This document shows positions 1,743-46,185 of a stretch of 64,000 nt of DNA, in pieces. Both the position numbers and the translations under genes were made by a program. This DNA comes from Escherichia coli. GTDB lineage: Bacteria > Pseudomonadota > Gammaproteobacteria > Enterobacterales > Enterobacteriaceae. Positions within the stretch are counted from its first letter, which is position 1; every line of letters starts with the position of its first letter. The stretch lies in assembly GCF_003334335.1 (NCBI RefSeq), contig NZ_QOWQ01000021.1; one strand, given 5' to 3'. The notes under the pieces were generated by a model, which saw only the letters and a program-made list of their open reading frames with translations, searched no databases and was not told the DNA's origin.

Positions 1743-2050
1743 AGATTCCTCTAAATAAATTCCAGAACACCGAAATCATTGTATAATTAAATACACAACG
1801 AATTAACCGCTTGCATAACTCGGCACAACACTGCCTGAAATAATCGATAAAGAATATGATTTATTACAATGTAATCATTAATTGCTAAGGAATAACCCAG
1901 TTGCTATTTAGAATATATATTTATCAGTTTTAGCAATTTAAATCCCATAATCAATGTGAATATAAAAAATATTATTAGCACAACGCTATGTTCACTGTCA
2001 CCCGCTCAACAGATCACGGTTATCGTTCGTTTTTTATACTGCTCAGGGAT

Positions 2051-2082
2051 AAAAAAAGGCCCCTGTTGAAATTGCAGGGGCC
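2051..2082 (-). terminator. putative rho-independent terminator after cutC
   Basis: Inverted repeat ggcccctg...caggggcc preceded on the + strand by an A-run (T-run on the - strand), about 50 nt past the cutC stop. Confidence 0.55.
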
Positions 2083-2129
2083 TGGTACGAGCAAGCATCA
2101 TATTGGGCGACATGATGCAACGGTAAAAA

Positions 2130-2885
<756 letters not shown>

Positions 2886-2889
2886 TTAA

Positions 2890-3456
2890 TTACGCTGACT
2901 GCTCGCTGGCAACGATCTCTTCAATGGACCACGGATGAAACTTAATAGTTGTTTTGCCATCGGTGACCGCCAGCGTCGGATTCGGTAATCGCTCATGCTC
3001 ACCTTTTGGTGAACTGGTTTTAACTGAGATCCCCGGTAGGCTGAGTCCTTCATCAGAAAGCAATGCCAGCGCACGGGCATTCAGCGTTTCTGGATCACCC
3101 GGCAGAACGATTTCAATATGTTCCCAACCTTCGTGTGGGTAACGTTTTTCCCCGGGCCACGGTAGCTCCACAATAGAAAACTGCCAGTGCGCAACCTGTA
3201 CCGGTTCATGCAATTTAAACAGACAAATCGGTCTGCCATTGATCATATTTTCTGACAAAAGCTCGCCACACTGTTCAAACCCGCGACGCCAGCGTTCAGC
3301 AGTGGCGTTTTGATGGCAACGCAAAGAAATGTGATCGGCAGTCAGCGGAGTGATATTCAACCCCAGACGGAGGGAAAGTTCATCTAATGCGTGGGTAAAT
3401 CGCGGTAAATCCGATGCAATATCCTGCAGCTCGTCGATAGATTGCCAGTTCGCCAT
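2890..3456 (-). CDS. yecM: YecM, VOC/glyoxalase-fold protein
   Basis: Track ORF 2890..3462; the known protein starts at the second Met (MANWQSIDELQ...), 188 aa; flanked by cutC and argS. Confidence 0.88.
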   Translation of the reverse strand: MANWQSIDELQDIASDLPRFTHALDELSLRLGLNITPLTADHISLRCHQNATAERWRRGFEQCGELLSENMINGRPICLFKLHEPVQVAHWQFSIVELPWPGEKRYPHEGWEHIEIVLPGDPETLNARALALLSDEGLSLPGISVKTSSPKGEHERLPNPTLAVTDGKTTIKFHPWSIEEIVASEQSA

Positions 3457-3671
3457 AATCACTCTTCGTCTTTCAGTAAAAGCGTTAATTTACCCTGTTG
3501 CCCTGCGCCAACCAACCGCTGATTTCACGCCGCTTCTGATGCAATAGTGAAAACGGCAATACGCCACGCGCACGTTGCTGACGAAAACAGCCATTTGCAG
3601 TATACTCCCGCCCTAATTTCTTTAACTGGTGCGGGCAATTTTTGCTCGCTTCATCAATGTAAGGTATTCCG

Positions 3672-5405
3672 GTGAATATTCAGGCTCTTCTCTCAGAAAA
3701 AGTCCGTCAGGCCATGATTGCGGCAGGCGCGCCTGCGGATTGCGAACCGCAGGTTCGTCAGTCAGCAAAAGTTCAGTTCGGCGACTATCAGGCTAACGGC
3801 ATGATGGCAGTTGCTAAAAAACTGGGTATGGCACCGCGACAATTAGCAGAGCAGGTGCTGACTCATCTGGATCTTAACGGTATCGCCAGCAAAGTTGAGA
3901 TCGCCGGTCCAGGCTTTATCAACATTTTCCTTGATCCGGCATTCCTGGCTGAACATGTTCAGCAGGCGCTGGCGTCCGATCGTCTCGGTGTTTCTACGCC
4001 AGAAAAACAGACCATTGTGGTTGACTACTCTGCGCCAAACGTGGCGAAAGAGATGCATGTCGGTCACCTGCGCTCTACCATTATTGGTGACGCAGCAGTG
4101 CGTACTCTGGAGTTCCTCGGTCACAAAGTGATTCGCGCAAACCACGTCGGCGACTGGGGCACTCAGTTCGGTATGCTGATTGCATGGCTGGAAAAGCAGC
4201 AGCAGGAAAACGCCGGTGAAATGGAGCTGGCTGACCTTGAAGGTTTCTACCGCGATGCGAAAAAGCATTACGACGAAGATGAAGAGTTTGCCGAGCGTGC
4301 ACGTAACTACGTGGTAAAACTGCAAAGCGGTGACGAATATTTCCGCGAGATGTGGCGCAAACTGGTCGACATCACCATGACGCAGAACCAGATCACCTAC
4401 GATCGTCTCAACGTGACGCTGACCCGTGATGACGTGATGGGCGAAAGCCTCTACAACCCAATGCTGCCAGGAATTGTGGCGGATCTCAAAGCCAAAGGTC
4501 TGGCAGTAGAAAGCGAAGGGGCGACCGTCGTATTCCTTGATGAGTTTAAAAACAAGGAAGGCGAACCGATGGGCGTGATCATTCAGAAGAAAGATGGCGG
4601 CTATCTCTACACCACCACTGATATCGCCTGTGCGAAATATCGTTATGAAACACTGCATGCCGATCGCGTGCTGTATTACATCGACTCCCGTCAGCATCAA
4701 CACCTGATGCAGGCATGGGCGATCGTCCGTAAAGCAGGCTATGTACCGGAATCCGTACCGCTGGAACACCACATGTTCGGCATGATGCTGGGTAAAGACG
4801 GCAAACCGTTCAAAACCCGCGCGGGTGGTACAGTGAAACTGGCCGATCTGCTGGATGAAGCCCTGGAACGTGCACGCCGTCTGGTGGCAGAAAAGAACCC
4901 GGATATGCCAGCTGACGAGCTGGAAAAACTGGCTAACGCGGTTGGTATTGGTGCGGTGAAATATGCGGATCTCTCCAAAAACCGCACCACGGACTACATC
5001 TTCGACTGGGACAACATGCTGGCGTTTGAGGGTAATACCGCGCCATACATGCAGTATGCTTACACGCGTGTATTGTCCGTGTTCCGTAAGGCAGAAATTA
5101 ACGAAGAGCAACTGGCTGCAGCTCCGGTAATCATCCGTGAAGATCGTGAAGCGCAACTGGCAGCTCGCCTGCTGCAGTTTGAAGAAACCCTCACCGTGGT
5201 TGCCCGTGAAGGCACGCCGCATGTGATGTGTGCTTACCTGTACGATCTGGCTGGTCTGTTCTCTGGCTTCTACGAGCACTGCCCGATCCTCAGCGCAGAA
5301 AACGAAGAAGTGCGTAACAGCCGTCTGAAACTGGCACAACTGACAGCGAAGACGCTAAAGCTGGGTCTGGATACGCTGGGTATTGAGACAGTAGAGCGTA
5401 TGTAA
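3672..5405 (+). CDS. argS: arginine--tRNA ligase
   Basis: 577 aa ORF with class I aminoacyl-tRNA synthetase HIGH-type motif (HVGHLRS) and ArgRS-like sequence throughout; GTG start. Confidence 0.97.
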
Positions 5406-8660: not shown

Positions 8661-9801
8661 GGGTCGGTTTCTCGTTAATAAAATCCAGGGCTTCCGGCAC
8701 CGGAAGATGAGTAGGTTGTACAGGGCGCTGTCCACCAGCCAGACGCCAGCGTTTCAGTTGCCAGACCCAGGCCAGCACTTCCGCCACCGCGGCGTACAGT
8801 TGACCCGGGATTTGTTGACCAATCTCCGCATGTCGATACAGCGCTCGCGCCAGCGGCGGCGCTTCAAGCGTCGGGACGTTATTTTCAGCGCCAATTTCAC
8901 GAATGCGCAGCGCGACCAGCCCTGCACCTTTAGCGACCACTTTCGGTGCGCTCATTTTGTTTTCGTCATACTGCAACGCTACCGAATAGTGGGTCGGGTT
9001 ATTGACAATGACATCCGCTTTCGGCACATCGGCCATCATCCGACGCCGTGCGGCAGCTCGCTGCATCTGACGGATCCGTCCTTTAACATGGGGGTCGCCT
9101 TCGCTTTGTTTGAACTCATCACGAATATCCTGCCGCGACATTCGCAGCTTTTTCAGGTGGCTGAATATTTGGAAAAAGACGTCAAATCCCACCATTGGAA
9201 TGACACCAAGCACCACCAGCAGTGCGCATAGCCCTACCAAATCCATCGCATTACCCATGGCGGTAATCGGAGACTCGGCCATTAAGCGCATCATCTGCGG
9301 CCAGTGATGCCAGAGATAAAACCCCGTCACGCTGCCAACCAGGATGTTTTTCAAAATTGCTTTAAGCAACTCCGCGCCAGTCTGAGCCGAGAACATCCGT
9401 TTAATGCCCGGTAGCGGGTTGAGTTTGGAAAACTTCGGCTGCAAGGATTTGCCGCTAAATACCAGCCCTCCCAGCATGACCGGAGAAATGAGCGCCACCA
9501 GCACCACGCCGCTAATCAGCGGCAGCAGCGCCAGCATGGCTTCTCTGATCAGCAGAATAATCTGCCCGAGGATCAGATTCGGGTCATTGATAATACTGTG
9601 ATCAAAATGCAGCCCAGCGGAGAGCATGCCCGACAATCGACGGGCCAGCGACACACCGCCAAACCAGATAACACTAACGCCCACCAGCAAAATCAGCAGT
9701 GAGGTCAGTTCACGGGAACGCGGGATTTGCCCCTCTTCCCGCGCTTTTTCTAGTCGGTGAGGTGTGGGGGCTTCTGTTTTGTCGTCGCTCTCGTCAGACA
9801 C
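8653..9801 (-). CDS. flhB: flagellar export apparatus switch protein FlhB
   Basis: 382 aa ORF MSDESDDKTEAPTPHRLEKAREEGQIPRS... with the NPTH autocleavage motif (VIVNNPTHYSVAL). Confidence 0.95.
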   Translation of the reverse strand: MSDESDDKTEAPTPHRLEKAREEGQIPRSRELTSLLILLVGVSVIWFGGVSLARRLSGMLSAGLHFDHSIINDPNLILGQIILLIREAMLALLPLISGVVLVALISPVMLGGLVFSGKSLQPKFSKLNPLPGIKRMFSAQTGAELLKAILKNILVGSVTGFYLWHHWPQMMRLMAESPITAMGNAMDLVGLCALLVVLGVIPMVGFDVFFQIFSHLKKLRMSRQDIRDEFKQSEGDPHVKGRIRQMQRAAARRRMMADVPKADVIVNNPTHYSVALQYDENKMSAPKVVAKGAGLVALRIREIGAENNVPTLEAPPLARALYRHAEIGQQIPGQLYAAVAEVLAWVWQLKRWRLAGGQRPVQPTHLPVPEALDFINEKPTHE

Positions 9802-9929
9802 GTCGCCAATCCTGGAAAGAGTATTAAGCGTGAATGATGCCAGAGCGCAAAGCGTTCAATGGTTTGAGTAAGGGGCAAAACAGGCGGGATTTAGGGCTTT
9901 TGCTGCCACACATCAAGCATAGTGTGCGT

Positions 9930-9995
9930 TTGTCGGATGCGGCGTCATCGCCTTATCAGACCGCCTGATATGACGTGGTCACGCCACATCAGGCA
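9930..9995. repeat. REP-like extragenic palindromic element
   Basis: Intergenic sequence tcggatgcggcgtcatcgccttatcagaccgcctgatatgacgtggtcacgccacatcaggc resembles enterobacterial REP units (GCCGGATGCGGCG...CGCCTTATC). Confidence 0.55.
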
Positions 9996-10002
9996 ATACA
10001 AA

Positions 10003-10647
10003 TCAAAATCCAAGACTATCCAACAAATCGTCCACCTGATCCTGACTGGCTACCACGCCGGCTTTGCTGGTATCGACCTGAGGTCCATTAAGCAAACTCT
10101 GGTTTTCACGTTTTGGACGCGACTCCTGTTCCGGGATGTTTTCCAACAGCACCATCAGCAACTGGCGTTCGATCTCCTGAATGACATCCATCATCCGCTT
10201 AATGACCTGCCCGGTGAGATCCTGAAAATCCTGCGCCATCATGATTTCCAGCAGTTGCGCGTTAGTAAAGCTGGTATGCGCGGGTACATCTGCCAGAAAT
10301 TGTCGTGTATCTGTTACCAGTTCACGGGCGTCGGCAAGGTCAATCGGATCGGCAAACCAGTCATCCCAACGTTGGGTTAACGCTTTTGCTGATTTCTCCA
10401 TTTGATCCTGATGCGGTTGTGACGCCTCAACACTGTTCAGCGCCCGCTCCGCAGCCTGGGCGGTCATCTGCACAACATAGTACAAACGATCGCGCGCATC
10501 GGGGATGGCTTCCGCCGCTTCGGCAATGGCCTGATCCAGCCCCAGTTCCCGCAAACTGTCGCGCAGCATACGCGTCAGGCTGCCGATGCGCGCAATGATA
10601 TCGCCAGCTGAATGCTCGTCAGCAGGTTTGATTGATGGTTGCATCAT
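10003..10647 (-). CDS. cheZ: CheY-phosphate phosphatase CheZ
   Basis: Track ORF has a 10-codon extension; the CheZ start [18 protein letters not shown] gives 214 aa. Confidence 0.95.
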
Positions 10648-34704: not shown

Positions 34705-34810
34705 AACTATCAACCACCATTTATAAATCATAACGTTATGATTTTATTAAGTATACAGATAAAGCAATATGGCGCTATTTGATGCTTTTGTTACTTTTCA
34801 TCGCCACTTT

Positions 34811-35812
34811 TTACCCTCTATTGTCAAAGGGATTCAGTTCAACAGCAGCCTCTAAATGACCCGGCGCAAAGTGTGCATAACGCATAGTCATTTTTATATC
34901 GCTATGCCCCAGTATTTTTTGCAACACAAGAATATTTCCTCCCCGCATCATAAAATGGCTGGCAAACGTATGACGTAGCACATGAGTTAATTGTCCGTCA
35001 GGAAGTTCGATCTTTGCTCTCTTAATAGCGGCGTCAAAAGCCTCATAACATGGTGAAAAAAGCGCCCCGCGTTTTTTAGGAAGCATGGCCTGCAATTGAG
35101 GTGAAATAGGTACAGTGCGGTTCTTCTTTCCTTTGGTTTTAACAAATGTGATTCGTCCAGGCAGTATTTGAGATTGCTTTAATCCCTCTGCTTCACTCCA
35201 CCTGGCACCAGTCGCAAGCCCAATACGGACGACAACACCCAAATCTTTATTCCGTGACTCATCACATGCAATCAGAAGGCGTTCAATCTCATCTGCATAC
35301 AGAAACGCCTGTTCCTTTTCTTCCTCACGAAACTTGCGAATACCTGTCAATGGATTTTCACCAGACCACTCCCCAAGGCGCTTCAGTTCAGCAAAAACAG
35401 CATGTAAATATGACTGTTCGCGATTAACGGTTGCTTCACTAAGTTTTTTCTTCCCCTTTGGATTCCATTCACCTGATAACCGCCGCTCCCTGTAGATGGC
35501 AAACATATTTTTATCAAATTGAGAAGCAAACGGATCACCCAACCTAGAACAAATCGCCTCAAGTTTAGCCTTGCGCTCTTCACCGGAAGACAACGTTTTA
35601 CCGTACATTTCAAACCAGCGAGCAACCAACTCGGAAAGACGGGGGCCAGAACCATCCTGAAACTCGCCCCCTAAATTACCGTTCATTAAACGGCGCTCAT
35701 AAGAGAGCGCCTCACCTTTAGTAGCAAACTGCTTACGAATGCGTTTTCCTGCTGCTCCGTAGGGATAGCATTCACAGAGCCATTTACCAGTAGATAGTTT
35801 ACGAACAGACAT
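34811..35812 (-). CDS. int: P2-type tyrosine integrase
   Basis: Track ORF 34811..35887; start MSVRKLSTGKW aligns with the P2 Int N-terminus; catalytic R...HxxR...Y motifs (ATGARWSEA, HVLRHTFASH, MRYAHFAP). Confidence 0.9.
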   Translation of the reverse strand: MSVRKLSTGKWLCECYPYGAAGKRIRKQFATKGEALSYERRLMNGNLGGEFQDGSGPRLSELVARWFEMYGKTLSSGEERKAKLEAICSRLGDPFASQFDKNMFAIYRERRLSGEWNPKGKKKLSEATVNREQSYLHAVFAELKRLGEWSGENPLTGIRKFREEEKEQAFLYADEIERLLIACDESRNKDLGVVVRIGLATGARWSEAEGLKQSQILPGRITFVKTKGKKNRTVPISPQLQAMLPKKRGALFSPCYEAFDAAIKRAKIELPDGQLTHVLRHTFASHFMMRGGNILVLQKILGHSDIKMTMRYAHFAPGHLEAAVELNPFDNRG

Positions 35813-35846
35813 ATTAAAAAGTGCACACCAAGGAAAATTTTCGTGA

Positions 35847-36104
35847 TTAAGATGGTTGCTCAACCCGCATAAAGAGCTTTTCATCAACTAACTGCTCCCA
35901 TTCATCGGGATCAAGCTCCCAAGAAGGAGCCGACATATCATCCTCATCCCCCTCATTTACAAAAGTAACCAAATAGAAAGGAAGATCTCCGGGCTCATCG
36001 TCATCGTCCTTGACAATATGAACATTAGTAACAACTATACGATTAGATGGATTAACTTTAGATACATATAAACCAATTAATGGAATTTGCGGATTAGTTA
36101 CCAT
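35847..36104 (-). CDS. hypothetical highly acidic 85 aa protein (cargo between repressor and integrase)
   Basis: ATG with upstream agagg SD; product has runs of D/E (VKDDDDEPGDLPFYLVTFVNEGDEDDMSAPSWELDPDEWEQLVDE); no family recognised. Confidence 0.6.
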   Translation of the reverse strand: MVTNPQIPLIGLYVSKVNPSNRIVVTNVHIVKDDDDEPGDLPFYLVTFVNEGDEDDMSAPSWELDPDEWEQLVDEKLFMRVEQPS

Positions 36105-36302
36105 AATTCATTTACCTCTTTGGACTTCCTCATGAACAAAGACTTACTTTTCTTTAAGACCATAACAAGTAATTCACACCATTTCTTACATCACTAGTTG
36201 CCCCCTCCCACCTTTGTCAGCTCGCTTAATTTATCTTTTTCATTTCTTTTAAAGTCGGTAAAGCAAGCTTTTGTCACAATATCTTTCTCCAACAACTATC
36301 TA

Positions 36303-36947
36303 TCAGAAAAGAACACTGCCTAATAAAACACCAACAACGAAACACATTCCTGTTTCTTTCGGGTATTTTCTAATTATTTGCTGAAAATTCATCTGTAATT
36401 GACTACCGGCAGAATTGTTGGCAGTTAATTTCTTTTCTCCTTCCACTGATTGTTGGTCTAACCAGGAAAGAGCCATCTGAAGCTGAGAACGAGTAAGATC
36501 GTTTAAGCGACCCGTTCCGAAATTGATATGGCAATAGCGGATAAGTTTTTGACGAAGCACTCCATCTTCACTATTACGAAGTAAAATACTTACAAGCGCC
36601 TTACGCGCATCATGATCTTTACATCGTTCAAGCATCGCACACAGAAAGCTCTCTGCGGTCTTATATTGATTCATTGTTATATCATCAATACTGTCTACAC
36701 CAATCTCTGCATGCAATTTTTGCCAAATAATAAACGCCTCGGTATTGCTGGCATCTACAATAGCAGCAACTAATCTATTTAATGCCTTCCGTTGCCCCTT
36801 AAGTAAGGGGCGTGGATCACTGTTATTGCTCGAAGGAATTGCGATATTGACGGTATGAGAGCCATCATATCGCCCTATCTGAATATTCTTTTCTTGGTAA
36901 TCTCGCCCAGCAATACGATTATCTGAACCGTTTGAGTTGACCGTCAT
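36303..36947 (-). CDS. hypothetical 214 aa protein with C-terminal hydrophobic anchor (cargo between repressor and integrase)
   Basis: Long ORF with good SD (ggaggtgg before ATG), C-terminal TM-like tail MCFVVGVLLGSVLF; N-terminus shares NRIAGRDY motif with the upstream repressor C-terminus. Confidence 0.7.
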   Translation of the reverse strand: MTVNSNGSDNRIAGRDYQEKNIQIGRYDGSHTVNIAIPSSNNSDPRPLLKGQRKALNRLVAAIVDASNTEAFIIWQKLHAEIGVDSIDDITMNQYKTAESFLCAMLERCKDHDARKALVSILLRNSEDGVLRQKLIRYCHINFGTGRLNDLTRSQLQMALSWLDQQSVEGEKKLTANNSAGSQLQMNFQQIIRKYPKETGMCFVVGVLLGSVLF

Positions 36948-36962
36948 GCCACCTCCTTGCTA

Positions 36963-37367
36963 TCACTTACCCTTTGTTTCGTTATAGTCACGGCCTGCGA
37001 TGCGGTTATTCCCGCCAGAGATATTTAACCCTCCCCCTGATGACTGACTCTCCTTTTCAGTGACTGCACCTTTCAAAGCACCAATCACCGCGTTTTTCAC
37101 ATCTAGTGAGGCACTCCGAAAACGTGTGATCAACTCCTGCTCATCATCGTTATAAGTTTCAGGTGAATGAATTCCCAACACGACATACTGAACATCAAGG
37201 CCAAAACGCGACAACGCTGATAAGTACGCCGCATCAGGAAAGCTATCCCCTTTCTCATATCTAAGTTGGGTTAACTTTTTAACCCCACCAATATCACTCA
37301 TAGCGACTTGGCTAAGACCCAGCCGTTCCCTTTCCTCACGCAACCGTTGGCCAATATCATTTTTCAT
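36963..37367 (-). CDS. XRE-family HTH repressor (immunity repressor, P2 C / CI equivalent)
   Basis: 134 aa; N-terminal HTH_XRE (IGQRLREERERLGLSQVAMSDIGGVKKLTQLRYEKG); leftward, divergent from the cox-like gene as in P2 immunity regions. Confidence 0.8.
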   Translation of the reverse strand: MKNDIGQRLREERERLGLSQVAMSDIGGVKKLTQLRYEKGDSFPDAAYLSALSRFGLDVQYVVLGIHSPETYNDDEQELITRFRSASLDVKNAVIGALKGAVTEKESQSSGGGLNISGGNNRIAGRDYNETKGK

Positions 37368-37376
37368 ACAAAAACC

Positions 37377-37405
37377 TTGACAGGTATCTTTTTTGATACC
37401 AAAAT
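37377..37405 (+). promoter_or_regulatory. candidate early promoter with embedded operator palindrome GGTATC-N6-GATACC
   Basis: TTGACA -35 hexamer, 17 bp spacer containing the perfect inverted repeat ggtatcttttttgatacc, then caaaat; lies between divergent repressor and cox-like genes. Confidence 0.5.
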
Positions 37406-37442
37406 ACTTTCATGAGCCATTAGATGAACACAATATACCACT

Positions 37443-37661
37443 ATGAAACAAGTTGTTCACGACACCAGATCACGGATTCCGCGTAACACAGCTACAGGAC
37501 CGCGACTGGCACTTCGATTGTCAGCAGAAGAGCGAGCCGTCATTGATGAAATGGCAACTAAAGAACAGCGCTCATCCTCTAACATGGCACGCATGATCTT
37601 CCTTCGTGGCCTTGAGATTATCCAGAAAGAGCAAAACCAATCTTCATGCTCAGGAGGTTAA
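37443..37661 (+). CDS. ribbon-helix-helix DNA-binding protein (Cox/Cro/Apl-equivalent first early gene)
   Basis: 72 aa; RLALRLSAEERAVIDEMATKEQRSSSNMARMIFLRGLE fits a strand-helix-helix pattern; first rightward gene after the repressor. Confidence 0.6.
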   Translation: MKQVVHDTRSRIPRNTATGPRLALRLSAEERAVIDEMATKEQRSSSNMARMIFLRGLEIIQKEQNQSSCSGG

Positions 37662-37665
37662 CGGG

Positions 37666-37869
37666 ATGCAAGGTATAACAATAAACATCAACGTTAATGC
37701 CCCTTACGTATCTCTGAAGAAATACGCCGAGATAACAGGCATTCCTCTTAACACATGCAAAAAGATGTTGGCTGACGGTCGAATTATTATCCGCCCCAAA
37801 CGCGCCAAAATGGAAAAACCAGAAGTAAACCTTATAGCTATGTTAAAAGACGCAATAGCCAACAGCTAA
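37666..37869 (+). CDS. small HTH regulatory protein (AlpA/excisionase-like fold, tentative)
   Basis: Internal Met of track ORF 37606..37869; YVSLKKYAEITGIPLNTCKKMLADGRI looks like a short HTH. Confidence 0.5.
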   Translation: MQGITININVNAPYVSLKKYAEITGIPLNTCKKMLADGRIIIRPKRAKMEKPEVNLIAMLKDAIANS

Positions 37870-37936
37870 ACAATGAAGCGAGCATAACTATGAAGAAAAC
37901 GTTTCATTAAAAACATCAAGATTTGAAGGTGTTGAC

Positions 37937-38131
37937 ATGACTGACTCCACTCAAACAAAAGACTTATACAGCGATTTACGATTCATCATCATACAACAGC
38001 AATCAGGCAGACTGGATCCAACACGTGCAAGCAAGGCCTGGAAAGAAGCACTTACCGATCAGGGGATCGATGTAATTAGCGAAGTCATGGCTGAAGTGAT
38101 TTTTAAGCTAACAAGAGACGAATCACTGTAA
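37937..38131 (+). CDS. hypothetical protein, 64 aa
   Basis: Track ORF in the early operon; no family recognised. Confidence 0.45.
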   Translation: MTDSTQTKDLYSDLRFIIIQQQSGRLDPTRASKAWKEALTDQGIDVISEVMAEVIFKLTRDESL

Positions 38132-38156
38132 TCATCGCATAAGGACCGAGTGAAGA

Positions 38157-38480
38157 ATGAAGCAACAACGAAATGCACGCATCAATAACAACACCGAACG
38201 CCACGTTGCACGCCAGCACTTCCGTAAAAATAGTGCGACCGCAACCACTGAAATCCATACCACACCAGACGGTCATCAGATAAAACAAACCGGAAAGCAC
38301 ACCTGGGCGATTGGCGACACTGGCATCGTTATTCACAAAAGTTTTCGTAGCCCTGTTACTGGCAGAATTAATTTTACCCTGACTCGCGGAGATGATTACT
38401 TCGGACAGGACTTCACATTTTTTGAAGCCTTAAGAACGGTCGATCGGTTAATGACTGGTCGTAATTTTCACGCTAAATGA
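38157..38480 (+). CDS. hypothetical basic protein, 107 aa
   Basis: Track ORF, co-directional and tightly packed in the early operon. Confidence 0.5.
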   Translation: MKQQRNARINNNTERHVARQHFRKNSATATTEIHTTPDGHQIKQTGKHTWAIGDTGIVIHKSFRSPVTGRINFTLTRGDDYFGQDFTFFEALRTVDRLMTGRNFHAK

Positions 38481-39302: not shown

Positions 39303-39527
39303 ATGAGAACAGTCGAATCACCCGCAACCGCCAGACCAGTTAACCATCATGCACATATCAGCATGGCCGCGAGAAAAGCCGAGCGTGCGCATATCTGCGA
39401 ATTGCTCCGAGACCTGGTTAACACGGCGAAAGAGAAGCACTCCTCCCCGCTGGAAACCTGTTCAGCCATTGAACGACTGATTGCAACGCTCACGAACAAC
39501 ACCGAACTGAAGGGGTCAGCGCAATGA
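39303..39527 (+). CDS. hypothetical protein, 74 aa
   Basis: Internal ATG of track ORF 39279..39527 preceded by aggag; stop overlaps the exonuclease start. Confidence 0.5.
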   Translation: MRTVESPATARPVNHHAHISMAARKAERAHICELLRDLVNTAKEKHSSPLETCSAIERLIATLTNNTELKGSAQ

Positions 39528-40105
39528 ACCATCTCATGATTGACACCGAAACACTGGGTAACGGACCGGACGCAGCCATATTCGCGATCGGGGCGGTGTT
39601 TTTCGACCCGTTCACCGGAAAGCTGGGCAAGCAGTTTGAGAAATTCATCGACCCGGTAGATTCAGAACGCAACGGCGGAACCGTCAATGCAGCCACCGCT
39701 GTATGGTGGGCCGGACAATCCGTGGAGGCCAGATCCTGCCTGCGCAACGCAGAGGGAACAGAGCTTGCGGCAGTAACCGAATTTCTGGCGTTCATTTCAC
39801 GCAATATGCATGACGAAAGCACGGGCAATTCACTGACCATATGGTGTAAGGGCGCATCCTTCGATTTCCCGATCCTGAAATCCGCCATAACACGCACAGC
39901 CGGAGAAAAAAGCATCCCCTGGTGCTACTGGAACGAGCGCTGTATGCGCCCGCTTATCGCCATGGCTGAATCAACTGGATGGAAAATGCCAGGCAGATCA
40001 GGAAAAGAGGCCATTGCTCACACCGCGCTGGGCGACGCCATTTACCAGGCAAAGGTCGTGTCAGAAATCTGGCAGCGCTTCACAACACCATTCCTGAACA
40101 TATGA
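39524..40105 (+). CDS. DnaQ-like 3-prime-5-prime exonuclease (DEDDh family)
   Basis: 193 aa; Exo I motif MIDTETLG and Exo III motif HTALGDA. Confidence 0.75.
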   Translation: MNHLMIDTETLGNGPDAAIFAIGAVFFDPFTGKLGKQFEKFIDPVDSERNGGTVNAATAVWWAGQSVEARSCLRNAEGTELAAVTEFLAFISRNMHDESTGNSLTIWCKGASFDFPILKSAITRTAGEKSIPWCYWNERCMRPLIAMAESTGWKMPGRSGKEAIAHTALGDAIYQAKVVSEIWQRFTTPFLNI

Positions 40106-40338
40106 GGTGAAGCCATGGTCGCCATCCTGAATGTGTGTTGCTGCCCCCCCCTGAACGTGGAAAGAAAAGCCCGCGCATCGCTGCGTTTATTCCGCGACGG
40201 CGTGCGGAATTTTTCACGCATAAAACCCCACGACTACCTGGTAATAAGAATCGGTTTCCGCTGGCGATTACTGAGCAAAAACAACGGGGCGTCATGGGAT
40301 TTATTAACGCACGAAACCTATAACAAAGAGGCCGCGTT

Positions 40339-41319
40339 ATGAGCAAAGAACTGTTATCCGGTACGCCACTGAAATGGGTGGGCGGAAAAAGCCGCATCAT
40401 GAACACACTGAAGGCGCACCTGCCAGAAGCCGACTGTCTGGTTGAGCCGTTCGTGGGCGGCGCATCGGTATTCATGAACACCAGTTACAAGCGTTACATC
40501 CTGGGTGATTCCAATGGTGCGCTGATTAATTTCTACCGGCAAGCTAGGGACAACACCGACAGCCTGATCGACGAGGCGAAAACCCTGTTCCTGAACCACA
40601 ACAACAGGGGTGACTATCTCATCATTCGCGAAACCTTTAACGCAGAGAATCATGCCTTCCTGAACAGCAGAACGGGAATAAGCGACCGCCGTGAACTGCG
40701 ACTGGCCGCCATGTTTTTGTACCTGAACCGACACAGCTTTAACGGTTTGTTCCGCGTGAACGGAAAAGGCGATTTTAACGTGCCTTTCGGCTGCTACCGC
40801 AAGCCCTACTTCCCTGAGCGTGAAATCCGCGCATTTGCAGACAAGGCAAACAGCACCCGAACGCTGCTTATCCACGCAGATTTTAAGGATACGCTGAACT
40901 CTGCCAGTCACCTGTTCGGCATGGGCAACACGCTTTGCGTGTACTGCGATCCCCCTTACCTGCAATTCAGTGGCCGGGACAATTTTACCGCCTACGGAAA
41001 ACCATTCGATGAAGACGAGCACGTTCGTCTGAGGGCAGCGCTTGACCGCCTTTCACAGGAAACGGGCGGCATGACCAGCATCACCATCTCCAATTCCGAC
41101 ACACCGGAAACACGACGCATTTATCGGGGTTACCGGATGAACTGCATACAGGCACCACGAAGCGTTGGCGCAAGAACCCGGGAATCAGCACCGGAGGTTA
41201 TCGCCACCCTGAGACAGTGCGACGCCTGCGGTCACCATGGCGGTGGCTACTGCCCGGACTGCGGACCTGTAACGGGAGATGCAACTTACAGCGTGATGTT
41301 TACCCCTGCCAGTACGTGA
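40339..41319 (+). CDS. Dam-family DNA N6-adenine methyltransferase with C-terminal Cys-rich extension
   Basis: 326 aa; FxGxG SAM motif (VEPFVGGASVF) and catalytic DPPY; C-terminus CDACGHHGGGYCPDCGP looks like a zinc ribbon. Confidence 0.85.
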   Translation: MSKELLSGTPLKWVGGKSRIMNTLKAHLPEADCLVEPFVGGASVFMNTSYKRYILGDSNGALINFYRQARDNTDSLIDEAKTLFLNHNNRGDYLIIRETFNAENHAFLNSRTGISDRRELRLAAMFLYLNRHSFNGLFRVNGKGDFNVPFGCYRKPYFPEREIRAFADKANSTRTLLIHADFKDTLNSASHLFGMGNTLCVYCDPPYLQFSGRDNFTAYGKPFDEDEHVRLRAALDRLSQETGGMTSITISNSDTPETRRIYRGYRMNCIQAPRSVGARTRESAPEVIATLRQCDACGHHGGGYCPDCGPVTGDATYSVMFTPAST

Positions 41320-41354
41320 ATAAACAGATGAATCAGTAACACCGGAGTCAGGAA

Positions 41355-41591
41355 ATGAATAGCGAAAACAACAAAGAGCTTTTGCGGGAATTGCGTCTCA
41401 TCGCCCGTGCACATGAGGAAGCAGCAAAAGTTATCGCTGCTGCTGGAAGACCAGAGCTCGTTATCGCTTCAGCAATCTCACTGAGGATCACCATGGAAGC
41501 AATCCGGGTGATTCAGGATCAGGAAAGTGAAATCGCCACCCTTAAAAAGCAGCTCAACGAGAAATCTGCCGGGCAAAGGAGTCAGCAATGA
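41355..41591 (+). CDS. hypothetical protein, 78 aa
   Basis: Track ORF; predicted helical; early operon. Confidence 0.45.
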   Translation: MNSENNKELLRELRLIARAHEEAAKVIAAAGRPELVIASAISLRITMEAIRVIQDQESEIATLKKQLNEKSAGQRSQQ

Positions 41592-41806
41592 TCCAGGAAT
41601 CAACCGTTATCCGGTTCACAGCCAACGGCCGTCAGTACGAGGTAGACGAAGCCCTGATTGATTACAGCATGACCCGCCAGAGCTCACGCTTTCAGGACAT
41701 GTACCACATCCGGCTAATCAACGGTTCGTCTTTCAACGCCACAAACGTGGAAGAAGTACGCGTGCTGACAGCAACACGCAACACGGGAGGTAAAGCGTGG
41801 CAGTGA
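41588..41806 (+). CDS. hypothetical protein, 72 aa
   Basis: Track ORF overlapping neighbours by a few nt, indicating translational coupling. Confidence 0.45.
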   Translation: MIQESTVIRFTANGRQYEVDEALIDYSMTRQSSRFQDMYHIRLINGSSFNATNVEEVRVLTATRNTGGKAWQ

Positions 41807-42147
41807 TTTATATCGCCGGCCCCATGACCGGATACGAAGACTGCAATAGAACGGCGTTTTGCCTGGAGGATCTGAAGCTTCGGTGCGCCGGAAACATCGT
41901 TCTTAATCCTGCCGTACTGCCTGACGGATTAAGCCAGCAGCAGTACATGAGTATTTGTATTCCGATGCTCATGTGTGCCGATGCCATTTACTTACTGGAT
42001 GGATGGGAAGAATCCGCTGGCGCACGGGCTGAGTACGCAATGGCGCTCAAACTGAACATGCCAGTGTCATTCCCGGAAAACCGGGCAGCCGTCGAAACCG
42101 TCGCGCAGCTGCTTCACAAATCAAAAGCCACACAGGCGACTGAGTAA
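41797..42147 (+). CDS. DUF4406 / nucleoside 2-deoxyribosyltransferase-like protein
   Basis: 116 aa; VIYIAGPMTG ... LLDGWEESAGARAEYAMALKLNMPV resembles the small Rossmann-like DUF4406 family common in prophages. Confidence 0.6.
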   Translation: MAVIYIAGPMTGYEDCNRTAFCLEDLKLRCAGNIVLNPAVLPDGLSQQQYMSICIPMLMCADAIYLLDGWEESAGARAEYAMALKLNMPVSFPENRAAVETVAQLLHKSKATQATE

Positions 42148-42585
42148 CCGACCGGAGATCGAAACATGATTGCGCGAAGAGCTGCCAACCGCCTCACAGG
42201 CTTTATTCCAGGCAAGGTTGATCATGCACTCCATCACGGCGCTGTCACTTTCCTCAACAAAGGAGAGGCGCGCAATCATGCATTCTGGGGTGAGCACGTG
42301 GCGCTGGCTAATCAGTCTTTGATAGCTAAGCGCCTGCCATTCAGCCTTTTCAGCTCTGATAGAAAGAGAGGCAGCCATGACCTGCCACACCAGAAAGAGC
42401 ACCACACTGGCGAAAACAAACGTTGCGCTGTCGCAAAAAATGAATGCGGCAACAATCGCAAGGAAAGCGCTAATCCTCAGAACCAAGGAAGCGCGACGGT
42501 GGAGAAGGCTTGTCATGTGTTCAAGCCAGTAGCTGTACCACAGGTCAAAAAGAATTTCGTAATCAGAAGGGAGCTTATCACTCAT
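42121..42585 (-). CDS. hypothetical membrane protein (about 154 aa, 2 TM) encoded antisense to the early operon
   Basis: Track ORF 42121..42768; first ATG at 42585 gives MSDKLPSDYEILFDLWYSYWLEHM... with two hydrophobic helices; its 3-prime end overlaps the DUF4406 gene convergently by about 27 nt. Confidence 0.55.
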   Translation of the reverse strand: MSDKLPSDYEILFDLWYSYWLEHMTSLLHRRASLVLRISAFLAIVAAFIFCDSATFVFASVVLFLVWQVMAASLSIRAEKAEWQALSYQRLISQRHVLTPECMIARLSFVEESDSAVMECMINLAWNKACEAVGSSSRNHVSISGRLLSRLCGF

Positions 42586-42765
42586 CAGAAACACCCCGCG
42601 TATGCAGACAATCACCAGTTGCCAGGTGATATTAATTCGCAACATTCTAACCACATCAGCACGCAACACAAAAACCGCTTGCCAGCGCTCGTCGTGTCGG
42701 GTTACATTTCCGCTGCACCTCATAAAACGGGTGCCGGGATTTCCACCCCGCTGACAAACGAAGCG

Positions 42766-42790
42766 CACAGCCGCGCCAGCGGTTTTTTTG
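42766..42790 (+). terminator. terminator-like hairpin plus T-run in non-coding gap
   Basis: ccgc-gcca-gcgg followed by ttttttt. Confidence 0.35.
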
Positions 42791-43258
42791 TGCGTACTGT
42801 ATCGCCACGTCTTTTTCGCGTCAGAATTATGGCGGGGCGTACAGGGCCGACTTCGGTCGGGCCGGTTTCTTCGTTTGCCGGTTGTGGAAACCCTGTACGT
42901 CTCGCCACCCTGAGTTTTCCACCTCTGGTTGGTGAGTTTTCAAAATTCACAAACGAAGAGGCCACACCATGGCAAACCGCAAGCAACAGCGCGCCCGCGC
43001 TGAGCGTCTTCACATCCACAGCGAAATCAACCGCAGACTTTTCCGCGCAACACGCGTCGCGCAAATCATGCATATCAACATGCTGCATGAGCGCACGCAC
43101 GCACTATCAAACCGTTACTGCGCTGCCGTCTTCAGCTATCTGGCCGAAGACCTGGCAGAACTGCAAAGCCTCATCAACCAGCACCGATAAACCACATCCG
43201 GAAGCTATCCCACACCTGCACGCGGGAGGCTTCCGCACATCTGTTACCGGAGGTTCTC

Positions 43259-43675
43259 ATGAAGAGCGTTAAGGGACTTTCAGATATTCAGGACTTTTTT
43301 AACTGGATGTGGGCGGAGGATCCCCTGCTGGCTTCCCGCCTGAACGACTGGCACGACTGTTACCGTCGCGCCTGTAAACAGGCTGCCCGCAGCGTCACCA
43401 CATACGGGGATTTCTCCTTCACCGTTGACGATCGTTACCGCGTGGACGTGAAAGGTGATGGTGATGGCTTTGGTTTATTTCACATCAACGGCATCGACAG
43501 CACCACCATCAGCTGGTCGTCATCAGAGATGGCGCTTGTGCTGGAGATGACAAACCACAGCGTGGCCGTGAAAGGTATATACACCGCAGAAGACTTTATC
43601 GGTGAATACCAGCGCCTTCTCATGCTGTACCGCGCGGCGTTTCAGGCGGCAACTGCCGGGGAGTGCGACGCATGA
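43259..43675 (+). CDS. hypothetical protein, 138 aa (upstream of A; B/orf-equivalent position)
   Basis: Track ORF; stop overlaps the start of gene A (ATGA). Confidence 0.55.
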   Translation: MKSVKGLSDIQDFFNWMWAEDPLLASRLNDWHDCYRRACKQAARSVTTYGDFSFTVDDRYRVDVKGDGDGFGLFHINGIDSTTISWSSSEMALVLEMTNHSVAVKGIYTAEDFIGEYQRLLMLYRAAFQAATAGECDA

Positions 43676-46185
43676 GCGACCATAACGCACAACTGGCGTA
43701 CCCGTGGAACGCCCCGCTGCAAGTTATCGATCCTGAAACGTTCGGCAGAGCGCAACCAACCGCATTACGCCAGGTCATTCAGAGCTACATCAACGAAGAC
43801 ATTCGCATTGATGCCAGACTAGATGAAGAAACCGTCGCCTTCCTGACAAACACAGACGAAGGCAAGCGAATTAATTTGCATCTTCACCGCGACGAAGAGC
43901 GTCGGATCAGACTGGAAAAAGTGGTGCGGCGCAAACGCGAATATCCGCCCACGCTGGTATCGAAAGCCATGGCAGAACTTCGCGCCCTGCCCTCGTTTCT
44001 TGGTAACGCGCTCATTCGTGATCTGGCGCGTTTAAACCGCAAACAGCAAAGCGCCCGCCATGAAGGCGTGAAAAACAACAATACACACGTGGCTGATAAC
44101 TTTGTTCGCCGTGGACTGCGCACACGCCTGAAACGCATCGAACAGGTGAATGAACGCTTCGCCACGACAGCATTCAAAGCCACCGCAGCGCGTCATCGCC
44201 TTGATGAATTACTCATGCTGCCACAACTCAACCGTGATCAAATTCAGCGCCTTGCCACACTAACGGCGGCGGCATTTTCCACCGAACTGGAACGCATATG
44301 TGATGAAGTTACTGAGCGGACAGGAAAAGGTGACGATAACCTGTTCACCTGGTTGCTGACTTACCAGCAGCTGGCGCGCATGGCGTTAAAACTGGGCGTG
44401 ACCCCACCATACTGGCCGTCACTCGAGATCAGACGTGACCGCCGCACGGCACCAGACCCTGAACTGGTACCGGGTGCGGTAATGCGTATCACCTGCGCCA
44501 CCTGGTGGAACAACCAGCTGCGCCACCTCGCAGATCTCTGGCGGGAGGAATTACTGCGTGCCGCCGGAAGAGTATCGCGCAAGGCATCCCCCTACATCAG
44601 TCATGAGTCACTCCAGGAATTCCGGGAGAAACGCCAGCGCACCCGTGATTTTCTCAAAAGCTGGGACATTGAAAACGAAGACGGTGAACGCCTGAGTCTG
44701 GAGGACGTGTACTGGTCAGGGCTGGGGAATCCGCGCAACCGCCGCAACGAGATGATGGCCTGCGTCAGAGGGATGGAACAGGTCGCCGAATCGCGTGGTG
44801 ACTCCGCGTTCTTCGTGACAGTAACCTGCCCTTCCCGCTTTCACAGCGTGAACGAGGACGGCAGCCTGAACCCGAAATACAACGGTGCCACCGTGCGCGA
44901 TGCCAGTGATTATCTGGTTTACGACGTCTTTGCAGCTGCAAGAAAAAAACTCAACAAAGAAGGCCTGAGCTGGTACGGGGTGCGCACCGTTGAGCCACAC
45001 CATGACGGCACACCACACTGGCACATGCTAGTATTCACTTCCCCGGACAATGAAGAACGCATCATTGAAATCATGCGTGACGCAGCAATCAAATCAGATC
45101 GCGCAGAACTGGGGAATGATATTTCTCCGCGCTTCAAGTGCGAAAAAATCGACCCGGCAAAAGGCACACCGGCAAGCTACATCGCAACCTATATCGGCAA
45201 GAACCTGGACACCAGCACCTTCCATAACAATGACCCGAAAACCGGCAAACCTTACGCCGATAAAGAATCGGGAAAAACCATGGCGGAAACCGTGGAAAAC
45301 GCCATTGCCTGGGCGAGTCTCCATCGCATCCGTCAGTTCCAGTTCTTCGGAATCCCGCCCCGCCAGGTATGGCGTGAACTCCGCCGCCTTGCCGGACAGA
45401 TGGAGCGCAACCCCGCATCACCGAAGCGCCTGGACCATGACGACATTGACGCCATTCTGGCCGCCGCTGACGTGGGGTGTTTTGCCACCTACATCAACCG
45501 TCAGGGCGGCGTGCTCATTCCACGCAACCTGTACCTGATCCGCACCGCATACGAAACCGCAGATGAGGCCAATGATTACGGGGAATTTCCTCAACGTATC
45601 TGGGGAATATGCGCCCCGTCGCTCGGCGAGCGCTACACCATCTGTACCCATCCGGACGAATGGAAACTGGTCAGAAAAGAAGCGAAAACCGACAACAGCA
45701 CGGACGAGGATTTTGACGTTGGGGGCGGCTTCGCCGCACCTTGGACTCGTGGCAATAACTGTCCCCATGATGAAAAAACAGACACCGGAGAGGGTAAAAC
45801 CCCACCACCGGAAACCAGGAAAGAACAAAAACTGGTCGTCCCGGGAGGTGATTTGGGTGAGTGGTTAAGGTCACTGACCCCCACAGAGCGAAAACAACTC
45901 ACCAGGCAGCTGAAAGATGCGCCATCTGACACAAAAACCGTGAAAACCGGCGGCCCCACCACGCCCGATGACGTCATACATGTGCGTACAGCATTGCCGC
46001 TGACTGACGTCACCACCACCGTAATCAAGTCGGCACTGAGCGCGACGGGCGAGGAGCTACACAGTGGCGCAGCACTTTCCGTACACAGAGGTGCACGCGT
46101 TCGCCTGCCTGACGGGCGGATTGTGCACTGGGATGAGAAATCACGAAGCCTGGTGGCAGCAGATCAACCGGAGGTGAACCCATGA
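43672..46185 (+). CDS. A: rolling-circle replication initiator endonuclease (P2 gpA family)
   Basis: Track ORF 43663..46185; HUH-type motif HWHMLVF and twin-tyrosine motif ASYIATYIGKN as in P2 A. Confidence 0.88.
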   Translation: MSDHNAQLAYPWNAPLQVIDPETFGRAQPTALRQVIQSYINEDIRIDARLDEETVAFLTNTDEGKRINLHLHRDEERRIRLEKVVRRKREYPPTLVSKAMAELRALPSFLGNALIRDLARLNRKQQSARHEGVKNNNTHVADNFVRRGLRTRLKRIEQVNERFATTAFKATAARHRLDELLMLPQLNRDQIQRLATLTAAAFSTELERICDEVTERTGKGDDNLFTWLLTYQQLARMALKLGVTPPYWPSLEIRRDRRTAPDPELVPGAVMRITCATWWNNQLRHLADLWREELLRAAGRVSRKASPYISHESLQEFREKRQRTRDFLKSWDIENEDGERLSLEDVYWSGLGNPRNRRNEMMACVRGMEQVAESRGDSAFFVTVTCPSRFHSVNEDGSLNPKYNGATVRDASDYLVYDVFAAARKKLNKEGLSWYGVRTVEPHHDGTPHWHMLVFTSPDNEERIIEIMRDAAIKSDRAELGNDISPRFKCEKIDPAKGTPASYIATYIGKNLDTSTFHNNDPKTGKPYADKESGKTMAETVENAIAWASLHRIRQFQFFGIPPRQVWRELRRLAGQMERNPASPKRLDHDDIDAILAAADVGCFATYINRQGGVLIPRNLYLIRTAYETADEANDYGEFPQRIWGICAPSLGERYTICTHPDEWKLVRKEAKTDNSTDEDFDVGGGFAAPWTRGNNCPHDEKTDTGEGKTPPPETRKEQKLVVPGGDLGEWLRSLTPTERKQLTRQLKDAPSDTKTVKTGGPTTPDDVIHVRTALPLTDVTTTVIKSALSATGEELHSGAALSVHRGARVRLPDGRIVHWDEKSRSLVAADQPEVNP

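Follow-up and report, generated by a model that had tools for sequence, protein, structure and literature searches.

In phages P1 and P4 the immunity RNA is cut from a read-through transcript by RNase P. The P4 RNA, CI, is processed from a leader and pairs with two sites, seqA and seqC, and P4 acts mainly by transcription termination (PMC4825925). The operon downstream of isrK in Gifsy-1 is expressed from the isrK promoter, and read-through of the isrK terminator has been demonstrated; the read-through transcripts are translationally inactive and an RNA of ∼80 nt, STnc1160, is processed from them, while IsrK, which binds Hfq, activates the downstream operon in trans and increases translation 100-fold or more (PMC4825925). 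The same paper likens IsrK to P4 SeqA and holds that STnc1160 may function as CI does, therefore the connection between IsrK and C4 RNAs is not new, and our initial idea that it had gone unrecognized was ruled out. Here, a gap of ∼670 bp (positions 42586-43258) was studied in a stretch of 64 000 nucleotides of Escherichia coli DNA (hereafter the window), which contains a P2-like prophage. The gap holds an unannotated member of these known RNA families, and we consider it, with a probability of roughly three in four, to be an RNA switch of the P1 c4, P4 CI and Gifsy-1 IsrK type that precedes the replication operon of a P88-like prophage. No description of an isrK-C4 module in P2-like phages, or in a P2-like replication operon, was found in the literature.

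Two phage RNAs and their recognition sites

A covariance-model search had been proposed in an earlier note on this DNA, which suspected that the gap encoded a small RNA. Positions 40000-46000 were scanned with the Rfam models and two full-length matches were found on the + strand, to isrK and to C4, both above their gathering scores (Table 1); these were the only phage RNA matches across the whole window. The suspected small RNA was, in the event, a pair of RNAs. The IsrK-like leader is made up of a first hairpin, a second hairpin with recognition site a1 in its loop, a linker containing site b1 and an intrinsic terminator. The hairpin with a T-run which the note had seen at 42766-42790 is this terminator, its stem (42769-42784) being followed by seven T residues, and it folds at −9.0 kcal/mol (z = −2.65). 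The promoter elements that were also envisaged in the gap were borne out as a prediction: a sigma-70 promoter is predicted to end 7 nt upstream of the leader, and the predicted transcription start, ∼42715, is the first base of the isrK match. A −35/−10 pair stands at the same position relative to isrK in P88-like, lambdoid, P4-like, Gifsy-1 and P1 modules, with differing sequences, and in the P1 record the P1c4 promoter is annotated at the equivalent place.

The C4 RNA has a 17-bp outer stem (42830-42846 with 42891-42907), two hairpins and a 3′ tail of GCCACC. The bulged hairpin that had been reported near 42843-42880 was found to be these two adjacent hairpins, the inner part of C4. The 88-nt element folds at −48.9 kcal/mol (z = −6.07), none of 200 shuffled sequences folded as well, and the minimum-energy fold is the consensus structure of the family. 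Alignment with the annotated 77-nt c4 RNA of P1 predicts a mature C4 at 42831-42909. The window C4 and P1 have in common a conserved 5′ junction, AUUAU/GG, and the 3′ GCCACC tail, and it is this shared junction and tail which suggest that C4 would be excised from a longer transcript as it is in P1 and P4.

Table 1. Features of the isrK-C4 module and the genes on either side of it; positions are those of the window.
Feature	Position	Strand	Details
Conserved 155-aa phage protein	42121..42588	−	phrog_6315, E 2.9e-65
Predicted sigma-70 promoter	42679..42708	+	−35 TTGCCA 42679-42684, 18-nt spacer, −10 TACATT 42703-42708 (promoter scan)
IsrK-like leader sRNA (isrK, RF01394)	42715..42789	+	64.1 bits, gathering 50, E 2e-12, model 1-77/77
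a1 site	42740..42746	+	TTTCCAC, exact complement of a′
b1 site	42755..42763	+	CAAACGAAG, exact 9-nt complement of C4 b′ loop
isrK intrinsic terminator	42769..42790	+	6 pairs, loop of 4, T7 (terminator scan and fold)
C4 antisense RNA (RF01695)	42825..42912	+	82.1 bits, gathering 45, E 1.3e-15, model 1-87/87
b′ loop	42868..42877	+	TCTTCGTTTG, in 12-nt loop of C4 hairpin 2
a′ junction	42884..42890	+	GTGGAAA, single-stranded junction of C4
a2 target	42916..42922	+	TTTCCAC, 7 nt past predicted C4 3′ end; same position as annotated P1 a2
b2 target	42950..42963 (core 42950-42959)	+	CAAACGAAGA, extendable to 14 bp with two G-U pairs; position of annotated P1 b2
73-aa basic P4 epsilon-family ('Derepression') protein	42969..43190	+	first gene after C4
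138-aa protein of unknown function	43259..43675	+	phrog_3237
P2-type replication initiator A (nickase)	43672..46185	+	phrog_91, E 1.5e-243

C4 carries two recognition elements, a′ and b′, each of which has a complement in the leader (a1 and b1) and another downstream of C4 (a2 and b2). In the window the complementarity is 7 nt long for the a sites and 9-10 nt for the b sites, and the b′ loop is the main recognition element of C4. The calculated duplex energies were −21.9 kcal/mol for b′:b2, −8.2 for a′:a2, −13.9 for b′:b1 and −8.3 for a′:a1. The b2 target overlaps the Shine-Dalgarno sequence GAAGAGG (42955-42961) of a 73-codon open reading frame (ORF) with its ATG at 42969, and when all 276 nt of the leader are folded together a 14-bp duplex of b′ with b2 forms and buries the ribosome-binding site. 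In Gifsy-1 the compensatory mutations G28A/C162U and G31A/C159U restored the inactive RNA conformation on native gels (PMC4825925). By our own mapping, the bases mutated in these pairs fall in a1:a′ pairs.

To extend the comparison beyond the window, IMG/VR was scanned with the invariant first hairpin of C4, yielding 120 loci, which together with annotated loci gave 125 complete modules. These represent 32 specificity types, combining 24 b loops and 13 a junctions, and each b loop is matched by its own b1 and b2 and each a′ by its own a1 and a2. The matches to the own a1 and a2 were at least 7 nt long in each type (apart from an a1 of 6 nt in one of the 32) and those to the own b1 and b2 mostly 9-10 nt, whereas loops taken from other types matched the same flanks by just 4-5 nt. 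Cognate duplexes averaged −28.1 kcal/mol compared with −16.6 kcal/mol (sd 3.1) for non-cognate ones, and on the window target the window C4 ranked first of the 32 types by duplex energy. The three copies of each site change together across the 125 modules. The a and b elements recombine, the window b loop being seen with three different a junctions.

Pairs were counted on an alignment of 74 distinct modules, Gifsy-1 and P1 included, with 500 shuffles for each of three structures. For the local helices of isrK and C4, 96.2% of cells were paired, against 36-44% when the partners were slid, and 20 pairs had changes on both sides, where shuffling gave 9.3 on average; the C4 outer stem was 100% paired with nine doubly changed pairs, and the first hairpin of isrK had five. 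The a1:a′ and b1:b′ pairings were formed in 93.9% of cells (30-49% with partners slid; covariation score 0.753 against 0.174 shuffled) and the a′:a2 and b′:b2 pairings in 76.4% (40-52% with partners slid; covariation score 0.395 against 0.136 shuffled), the last figure being reduced because lambdoid and P4-like rows are partly out of register. For none of the three structures did any of the 500 shuffles attain the observed percentage paired or the observed covariation score. The two hairpins reported in the earlier note are genuine rather than chance features.

Some modules (e.g. the IMG/VR loci L017, L044, L067 and L108) use TTTCCAC as a′, the exact complement of the window a′. These are mostly P4-like by their leader and promoter sequences, and they have the same 7-mer pair with the strands swapped.

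In E. coli G1/2 (NZ_CP060083.1), which has a near-identical prophage, the isrK-C4-epsilon unit occurs twice in tandem with a period of 750 bp. The two copies, at 9130-9605 and 9880-10355, are equivalent to 42692-43429 of the window and differ in their a/b codes at all six sites (TTTCTTCGTTTG/GTGGAAA in one and GTTCTTTGCTAG/CTGCGAA in the other); the window holds only the first of them.

A 17-nt inverted repeat, 88% complementary, was observed between 42666-42682, upstream of the −35 element, and 42775-42791, which comprises the 3′ arm of the terminator and the U-tract. The idea that this repeat serves as an anti-terminator, allowing read-through of transcripts arriving from upstream, was judged weak, the match being partly an A-run against a T-run. 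Within the P2-like group both arms are invariant, and neither the other groups nor the second G1/2 copy has the repeat.

The epsilon-like gene and the genes downstream

The first gene after C4 is the 73-codon ORF that the earlier note had described as highly basic, and 11 of its 73 residues are indeed arginine. The product matched the Pfam family PF25738 'Derepression' over residues 10-65 (i-E 1.6e-6, 28.2 bits) and phrog_3688 (E 6e-39), and was 32% identical to P4 epsilon over 50 aa by BLASTP (E 1e-7). Its start stands at a fixed offset in 79 modules, and the synonymous fraction was 0.56 in the epsilon frame against 0.20-0.24 in the other two frames. The ORF is therefore a genuine member gene of the P4 epsilon family, and across relatives it is under purifying selection. 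Sequence searches with the protein in NCBIfam, PADLOC and the PDB gave no useful match. P1 Icd, which is also encoded by 73 codons, was considered and rejected as a counterpart, there being no BLASTP alignment at E ≤ 100 and no NCBIfam match; only length and position are common to the two, and the equal length appears to be coincidental.

Variants of the epsilon-like protein do not sort with the family of the resident repressor. The same variant is found with three repressors, one of them unrelated, and the repressor in the window is unrelated to that of G1/2 though the epsilon-like protein is the same. The absence of an association gives no support for a role as antirepressor of its own phage.

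The epsilon-like gene is followed by a gene for a 138-aa protein and then by gene A, an order which is usual in related modules and was found in at least 60 of the 125 (phrog_3237 followed by phrog_91); six modules were in P4-like contexts and 22 in others. For the 138-aa gene by itself, its position after the epsilon-like gene was noted in at least 22 related modules. The stop codon of the 138-aa gene overlaps the ATG of A (ATGA, 43672-43675). The 138-aa gene would be on the same transcript as the epsilon-like gene, and A is probably the distal gene of an operon controlled by C4.

In the P2 and 186 records the origin nick sites are inside gene A. The counterpart of the P2 nick region, which was located through an alignment of the A proteins, lies at 45733-45762 inside the window gene A, ∼2.5 kb downstream from the gap, and agrees with it in 25 of 30 bases; no match to the P2 nick-site 20-mer was found in the window within three mismatches. 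The origin, which the earlier note had considered placing in the gap, is likely to be at this site inside A. The comparison with P2 and 186 which the note had also proposed was of use for the origin, against the gap, and supplied no small RNA counterpart, as in neither phage did isrK or C4 give a match at E ≤ 1. The module thus belongs to the P88-like branch and not to the prototypes of the family.

Proposed action of the module and competing explanations

Transcription from the predicted promoter would begin at the first base of the leader and most transcripts would stop at the terminator, giving a 75-nt IsrK-like RNA that bears a1 and b1 as decoy sites. Partial read-through, which by analogy with Gifsy-1 presumably takes place here, would be needed for synthesis of C4 and of the mRNA; the read-through transcripts would carry C4, a2 and b2, and the message for the epsilon-like protein, the 138-aa protein and A. 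As in the related systems, C4 would be cut from such a transcript and its a′ and b′ would pair with a2 and b2. Because the b′:b2 duplex covers the Shine-Dalgarno sequence, the epsilon-like gene would be left untranslated, and the untranslated mRNA would probably be ended early by Rho, keeping expression of the 138-aa gene and of the translationally coupled A low. Since IsrK holds weaker copies of the sites, it could titrate C4 or open the inactive long transcript, switching expression on as in Gifsy-1. The a/b sequences would constitute a specificity code, through which a resident prophage would silence an incoming phage with the same code.

Several points weigh against an RNA switch of this kind. 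The c4-a1b1 model (RF03163; gathering 46.7 bits) had no match at E ≤ 1 in the window, where the a1 and b1 sites are nonetheless present; the same model scored 44.1 bits on P4 and 48.1 bits on Gifsy-1. In Gifsy-1, contrary to the expectation from a simple decoy model, IsrK was not counteracted when the C4-like RNA was expressed constitutively (PMC4825925). Given the three repressors and the modest identity to P4 epsilon, it may be that the epsilon-like protein does not serve as antirepressor for the phage that encodes it. Finally, to reach A the control would have to extend across a 68-nt gap between the epsilon-like and 138-aa genes, in which no terminator is predicted.

The same RNAs could have their main effect in the P4 manner, with C4 pairing to a1/b1 and a2/b2 on the nascent transcript to cause premature termination before the replication genes and the translation block being secondary. 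This is tentatively entertained, and the two effects are mutually compatible. P4 has the same order of isrK/c4-a1b1, C4 (CI), epsilon and alpha, the window module is likewise upstream of an epsilon homologue and a replication gene, and upstream and downstream sites are both conserved, as are seqA and seqC of P4. Set against this, b2 lies right over the Shine-Dalgarno sequence, an arrangement shared with P1, in which repression of translation is the first event, and no intrinsic terminator is predicted after C4.

An unlikelier proposal is that the module acts mainly in trans, in helper-satellite cross-talk, in exclusion of P2-like phages with the same code, or through derepression of other prophages by the epsilon-like protein. 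The 32 a/b codes with their independently recombining elements, the independence of epsilon variants from the resident repressor family and the strain with two tandem modules of different codes all agree with such a role, and P4 epsilon itself targets a different element, P2 (PMC8628076). Every module, however, carries its own matched targets in cis, and no code is common to a P2-like module and any of the six sampled P4-like ones.

It is improbable that the module is an inactive relic, with RNA genes which are recognizable but no longer work in the window prophage. The interruption of the early operon by the neighbouring − strand gene could be read in that way, but the promoter and terminator, every stem and each of the six recognition sites are intact and mutually matched, the epsilon-like gene shows the pattern of selection described above, and, among the 65 E. 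coli genomes in which most of the segment is present, the 12 closest have it at 97.8-99.9% identity.

Three mechanically called ORFs, of 368 aa (+), 126 aa (−) and 215 aa (−), cross the gap, therefore the statement in the earlier note that it contains no convincing long ORF needed testing. It was upheld, as none of the three has a coding signature, and there is very little chance that the conserved sequence encodes an 'Ash'- or 'orf45'-like protein. The frame in question runs from an ATG at 42829, inside the 5′ end of C4, for 147 codons to 43272, and 65 of 89 distinct modules keep it open over 143-149 codons; the + strand frame of the 368-aa ORF (42649-43030) matches the PHROG 'transcriptional regulator' families 821, 995 and 6928, and Gifsy-1 'orf45', at the same position, was reported to be translated (PMC4825925). 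By contrast, the synonymous fraction of this frame was 0.20, similar to that of the third frame (0.24) and well below that of the epsilon frame, the frame stayed open in 6-31% of synonymous reshuffling trials, it had no Pfam or NCBIfam match, and the changes in the stems are compensatory. A long ORF starting inside C4 was therefore rejected as coding. The PHROG matches arise because lambdoid antirepressor genes have been annotated from an ATG inside C4, and those to Phage_ASH (PF10554) are explained by an obsolete P4 'cI protein' ORF annotated across the CI RNA gene (NC_001609, 8330-8521, − strand). PF10554 was used as a marker for epsilon in a survey of P4-like satellites (PMC8628076). Phage_ASH and several PHROG 'transcriptional regulator' families thus contain translations of C4 RNA genes and can mislead searches for phages and satellites.

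A replication origin in the gap, suggested by non-coding DNA beside a replication gene, is very unlikely, as the gap has no iterons or AT-rich stretch and the origins of P2 and 186, like the nick-region counterpart here, are inside A.

Prophage context and comparison with known systems

The prophage in the window adjoins dmsA, and the nearest sequenced phages are P88 and other members of Xuanwuvirus; P88-like phages carry the isrK-C4 module. The module segment is 99.9% identical to those of E. coli strains S19-651 and G1/2, and a match to it is present in 1228 of 5426 complete E. coli genomes, about a quarter. The immunity region is mosaic between the window (34800-38190) and the G1/2 locus (1780-4800): the window repressor is a 134-aa protein of XRE type (36963-37367, − strand) and that of G1/2 is of 113 aa, and from 38194 onward the two prophages are 95-98% identical. 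The early region at 39524-42147 (+) contains genes for a 3′-5′ exonuclease, a ParE-like toxin, a Dam-type methylase and a DUF4406 or nucleoside 2-deoxyribosyltransferase-like protein, which differ from those at the equivalent place in P88. Between these genes and the RNA module, on the opposite strand, is the flanking antisense gene of the earlier note, which encodes a conserved phage protein of 155 aa; it is perhaps an accessory gene that was inserted here, and its promoter may point away from that of isrK. The chromosomal part of the window contains two host small RNAs, MicL (2051-2358, − strand, 381.9 bits) and C0465 (16349-16426, + strand, 111.6 bits).

The RefSeq annotation of near-identical prophages misses both RNA genes and has 'hypothetical protein' genes on the wrong strand instead. 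The annotations over isrK and C4 are either a 'hypothetical protein' on the opposite strand (9135-9503 in G1/2 and 5033-5221 in P88, both −) or 'similar to ash family protein', with no RNA gene annotated (also in L002, 4010-4270). Of the by-products of the work, the most useful are these errors of annotation and the collection of specificity codes that covary.

We think it possible, rather than probable, that in the P88-like phages of the P2 family an RNA immunity of P4/P1 type has been joined to the replication operon as a second, RNA-based layer of immunity and replication control, independent of the C/Cox protein switch, with dozens of freely recombining a/b specificities that are sometimes in tandem; such a layer could set superinfection exclusion, induction via an epsilon-like antirepressor, or helper-satellite cross-talk. 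If the module does control the epsilon-like protein and A, a common group of P2-like prophages would gain an RNA-coded and highly variable checkpoint on immunity and replication that is absent in P2 and 186. The code, of ∼7 plus 10 nt, follows simple rules and is therefore directly testable.

In common with P2 and 186, the window prophage has an integrase, a repressor, an early operon ending in A, and an origin that is likely to be inside A. Phage 186 uses the LexA-controlled antirepressor Tum, whereas a search for LexA boxes gave none in the prophage part of the window. The overlap of the 138-aa ORF with A has a parallel in 186, whose record notes that A relies for its translation on that of the ORF ahead of it, and that a terminator comes into action if A is left untranslated.

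Gifsy-1 isrK-'orf45'(STnc1160)-anrP shares the order of the window, with C4 starting 25 nt after isrK. The downstream gene in that lambdoid prophage is an Ant-type antirepressor (anrP), which switches on a Q-like antiterminator, unlike the epsilon-like gene, 138-aa gene and A that would be controlled in this P2-like phage.

With P4 the window shares an isrK-type leader (P4 matches isrK/c4-a1b1) followed by C4/CI, with an epsilon-family gene and a replication gene downstream, the RNA being placed ahead of the replication functions. P4 has kil and further ORFs separating CI from epsilon, whereas in the window the epsilon-like gene comes first; the replication protein is the alpha primase-helicase in P4 and a P2-type nickase in the window, and the a/b sequences differ.

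The P1/P7 immI region (c4, icd and ant) contains an RNA of the same Rfam family, C4. The first gene is Icd in P1 and P4-epsilon-like in the window, and downstream, where P1 has Ant, the window has no ant and instead carries the 138-aa gene and a P2-type A. The promoter region of P1 c4 carries a C1 operator, while no operator was identified in the window, and the window leader, unlike that of P1, scores as isrK with a clear terminator. It is the counterpart of P4 SeqA and of the P1 leader with a1 and b1. The window is collinear with the P1 record at near-equal spacing, in the order promoter, a1, b1, ∼67 nt, C4, a2 and b2, and in both b2 lies over the Shine-Dalgarno sequence of a 73-codon first gene (icd in P1) and two short recognition elements differ between relatives.

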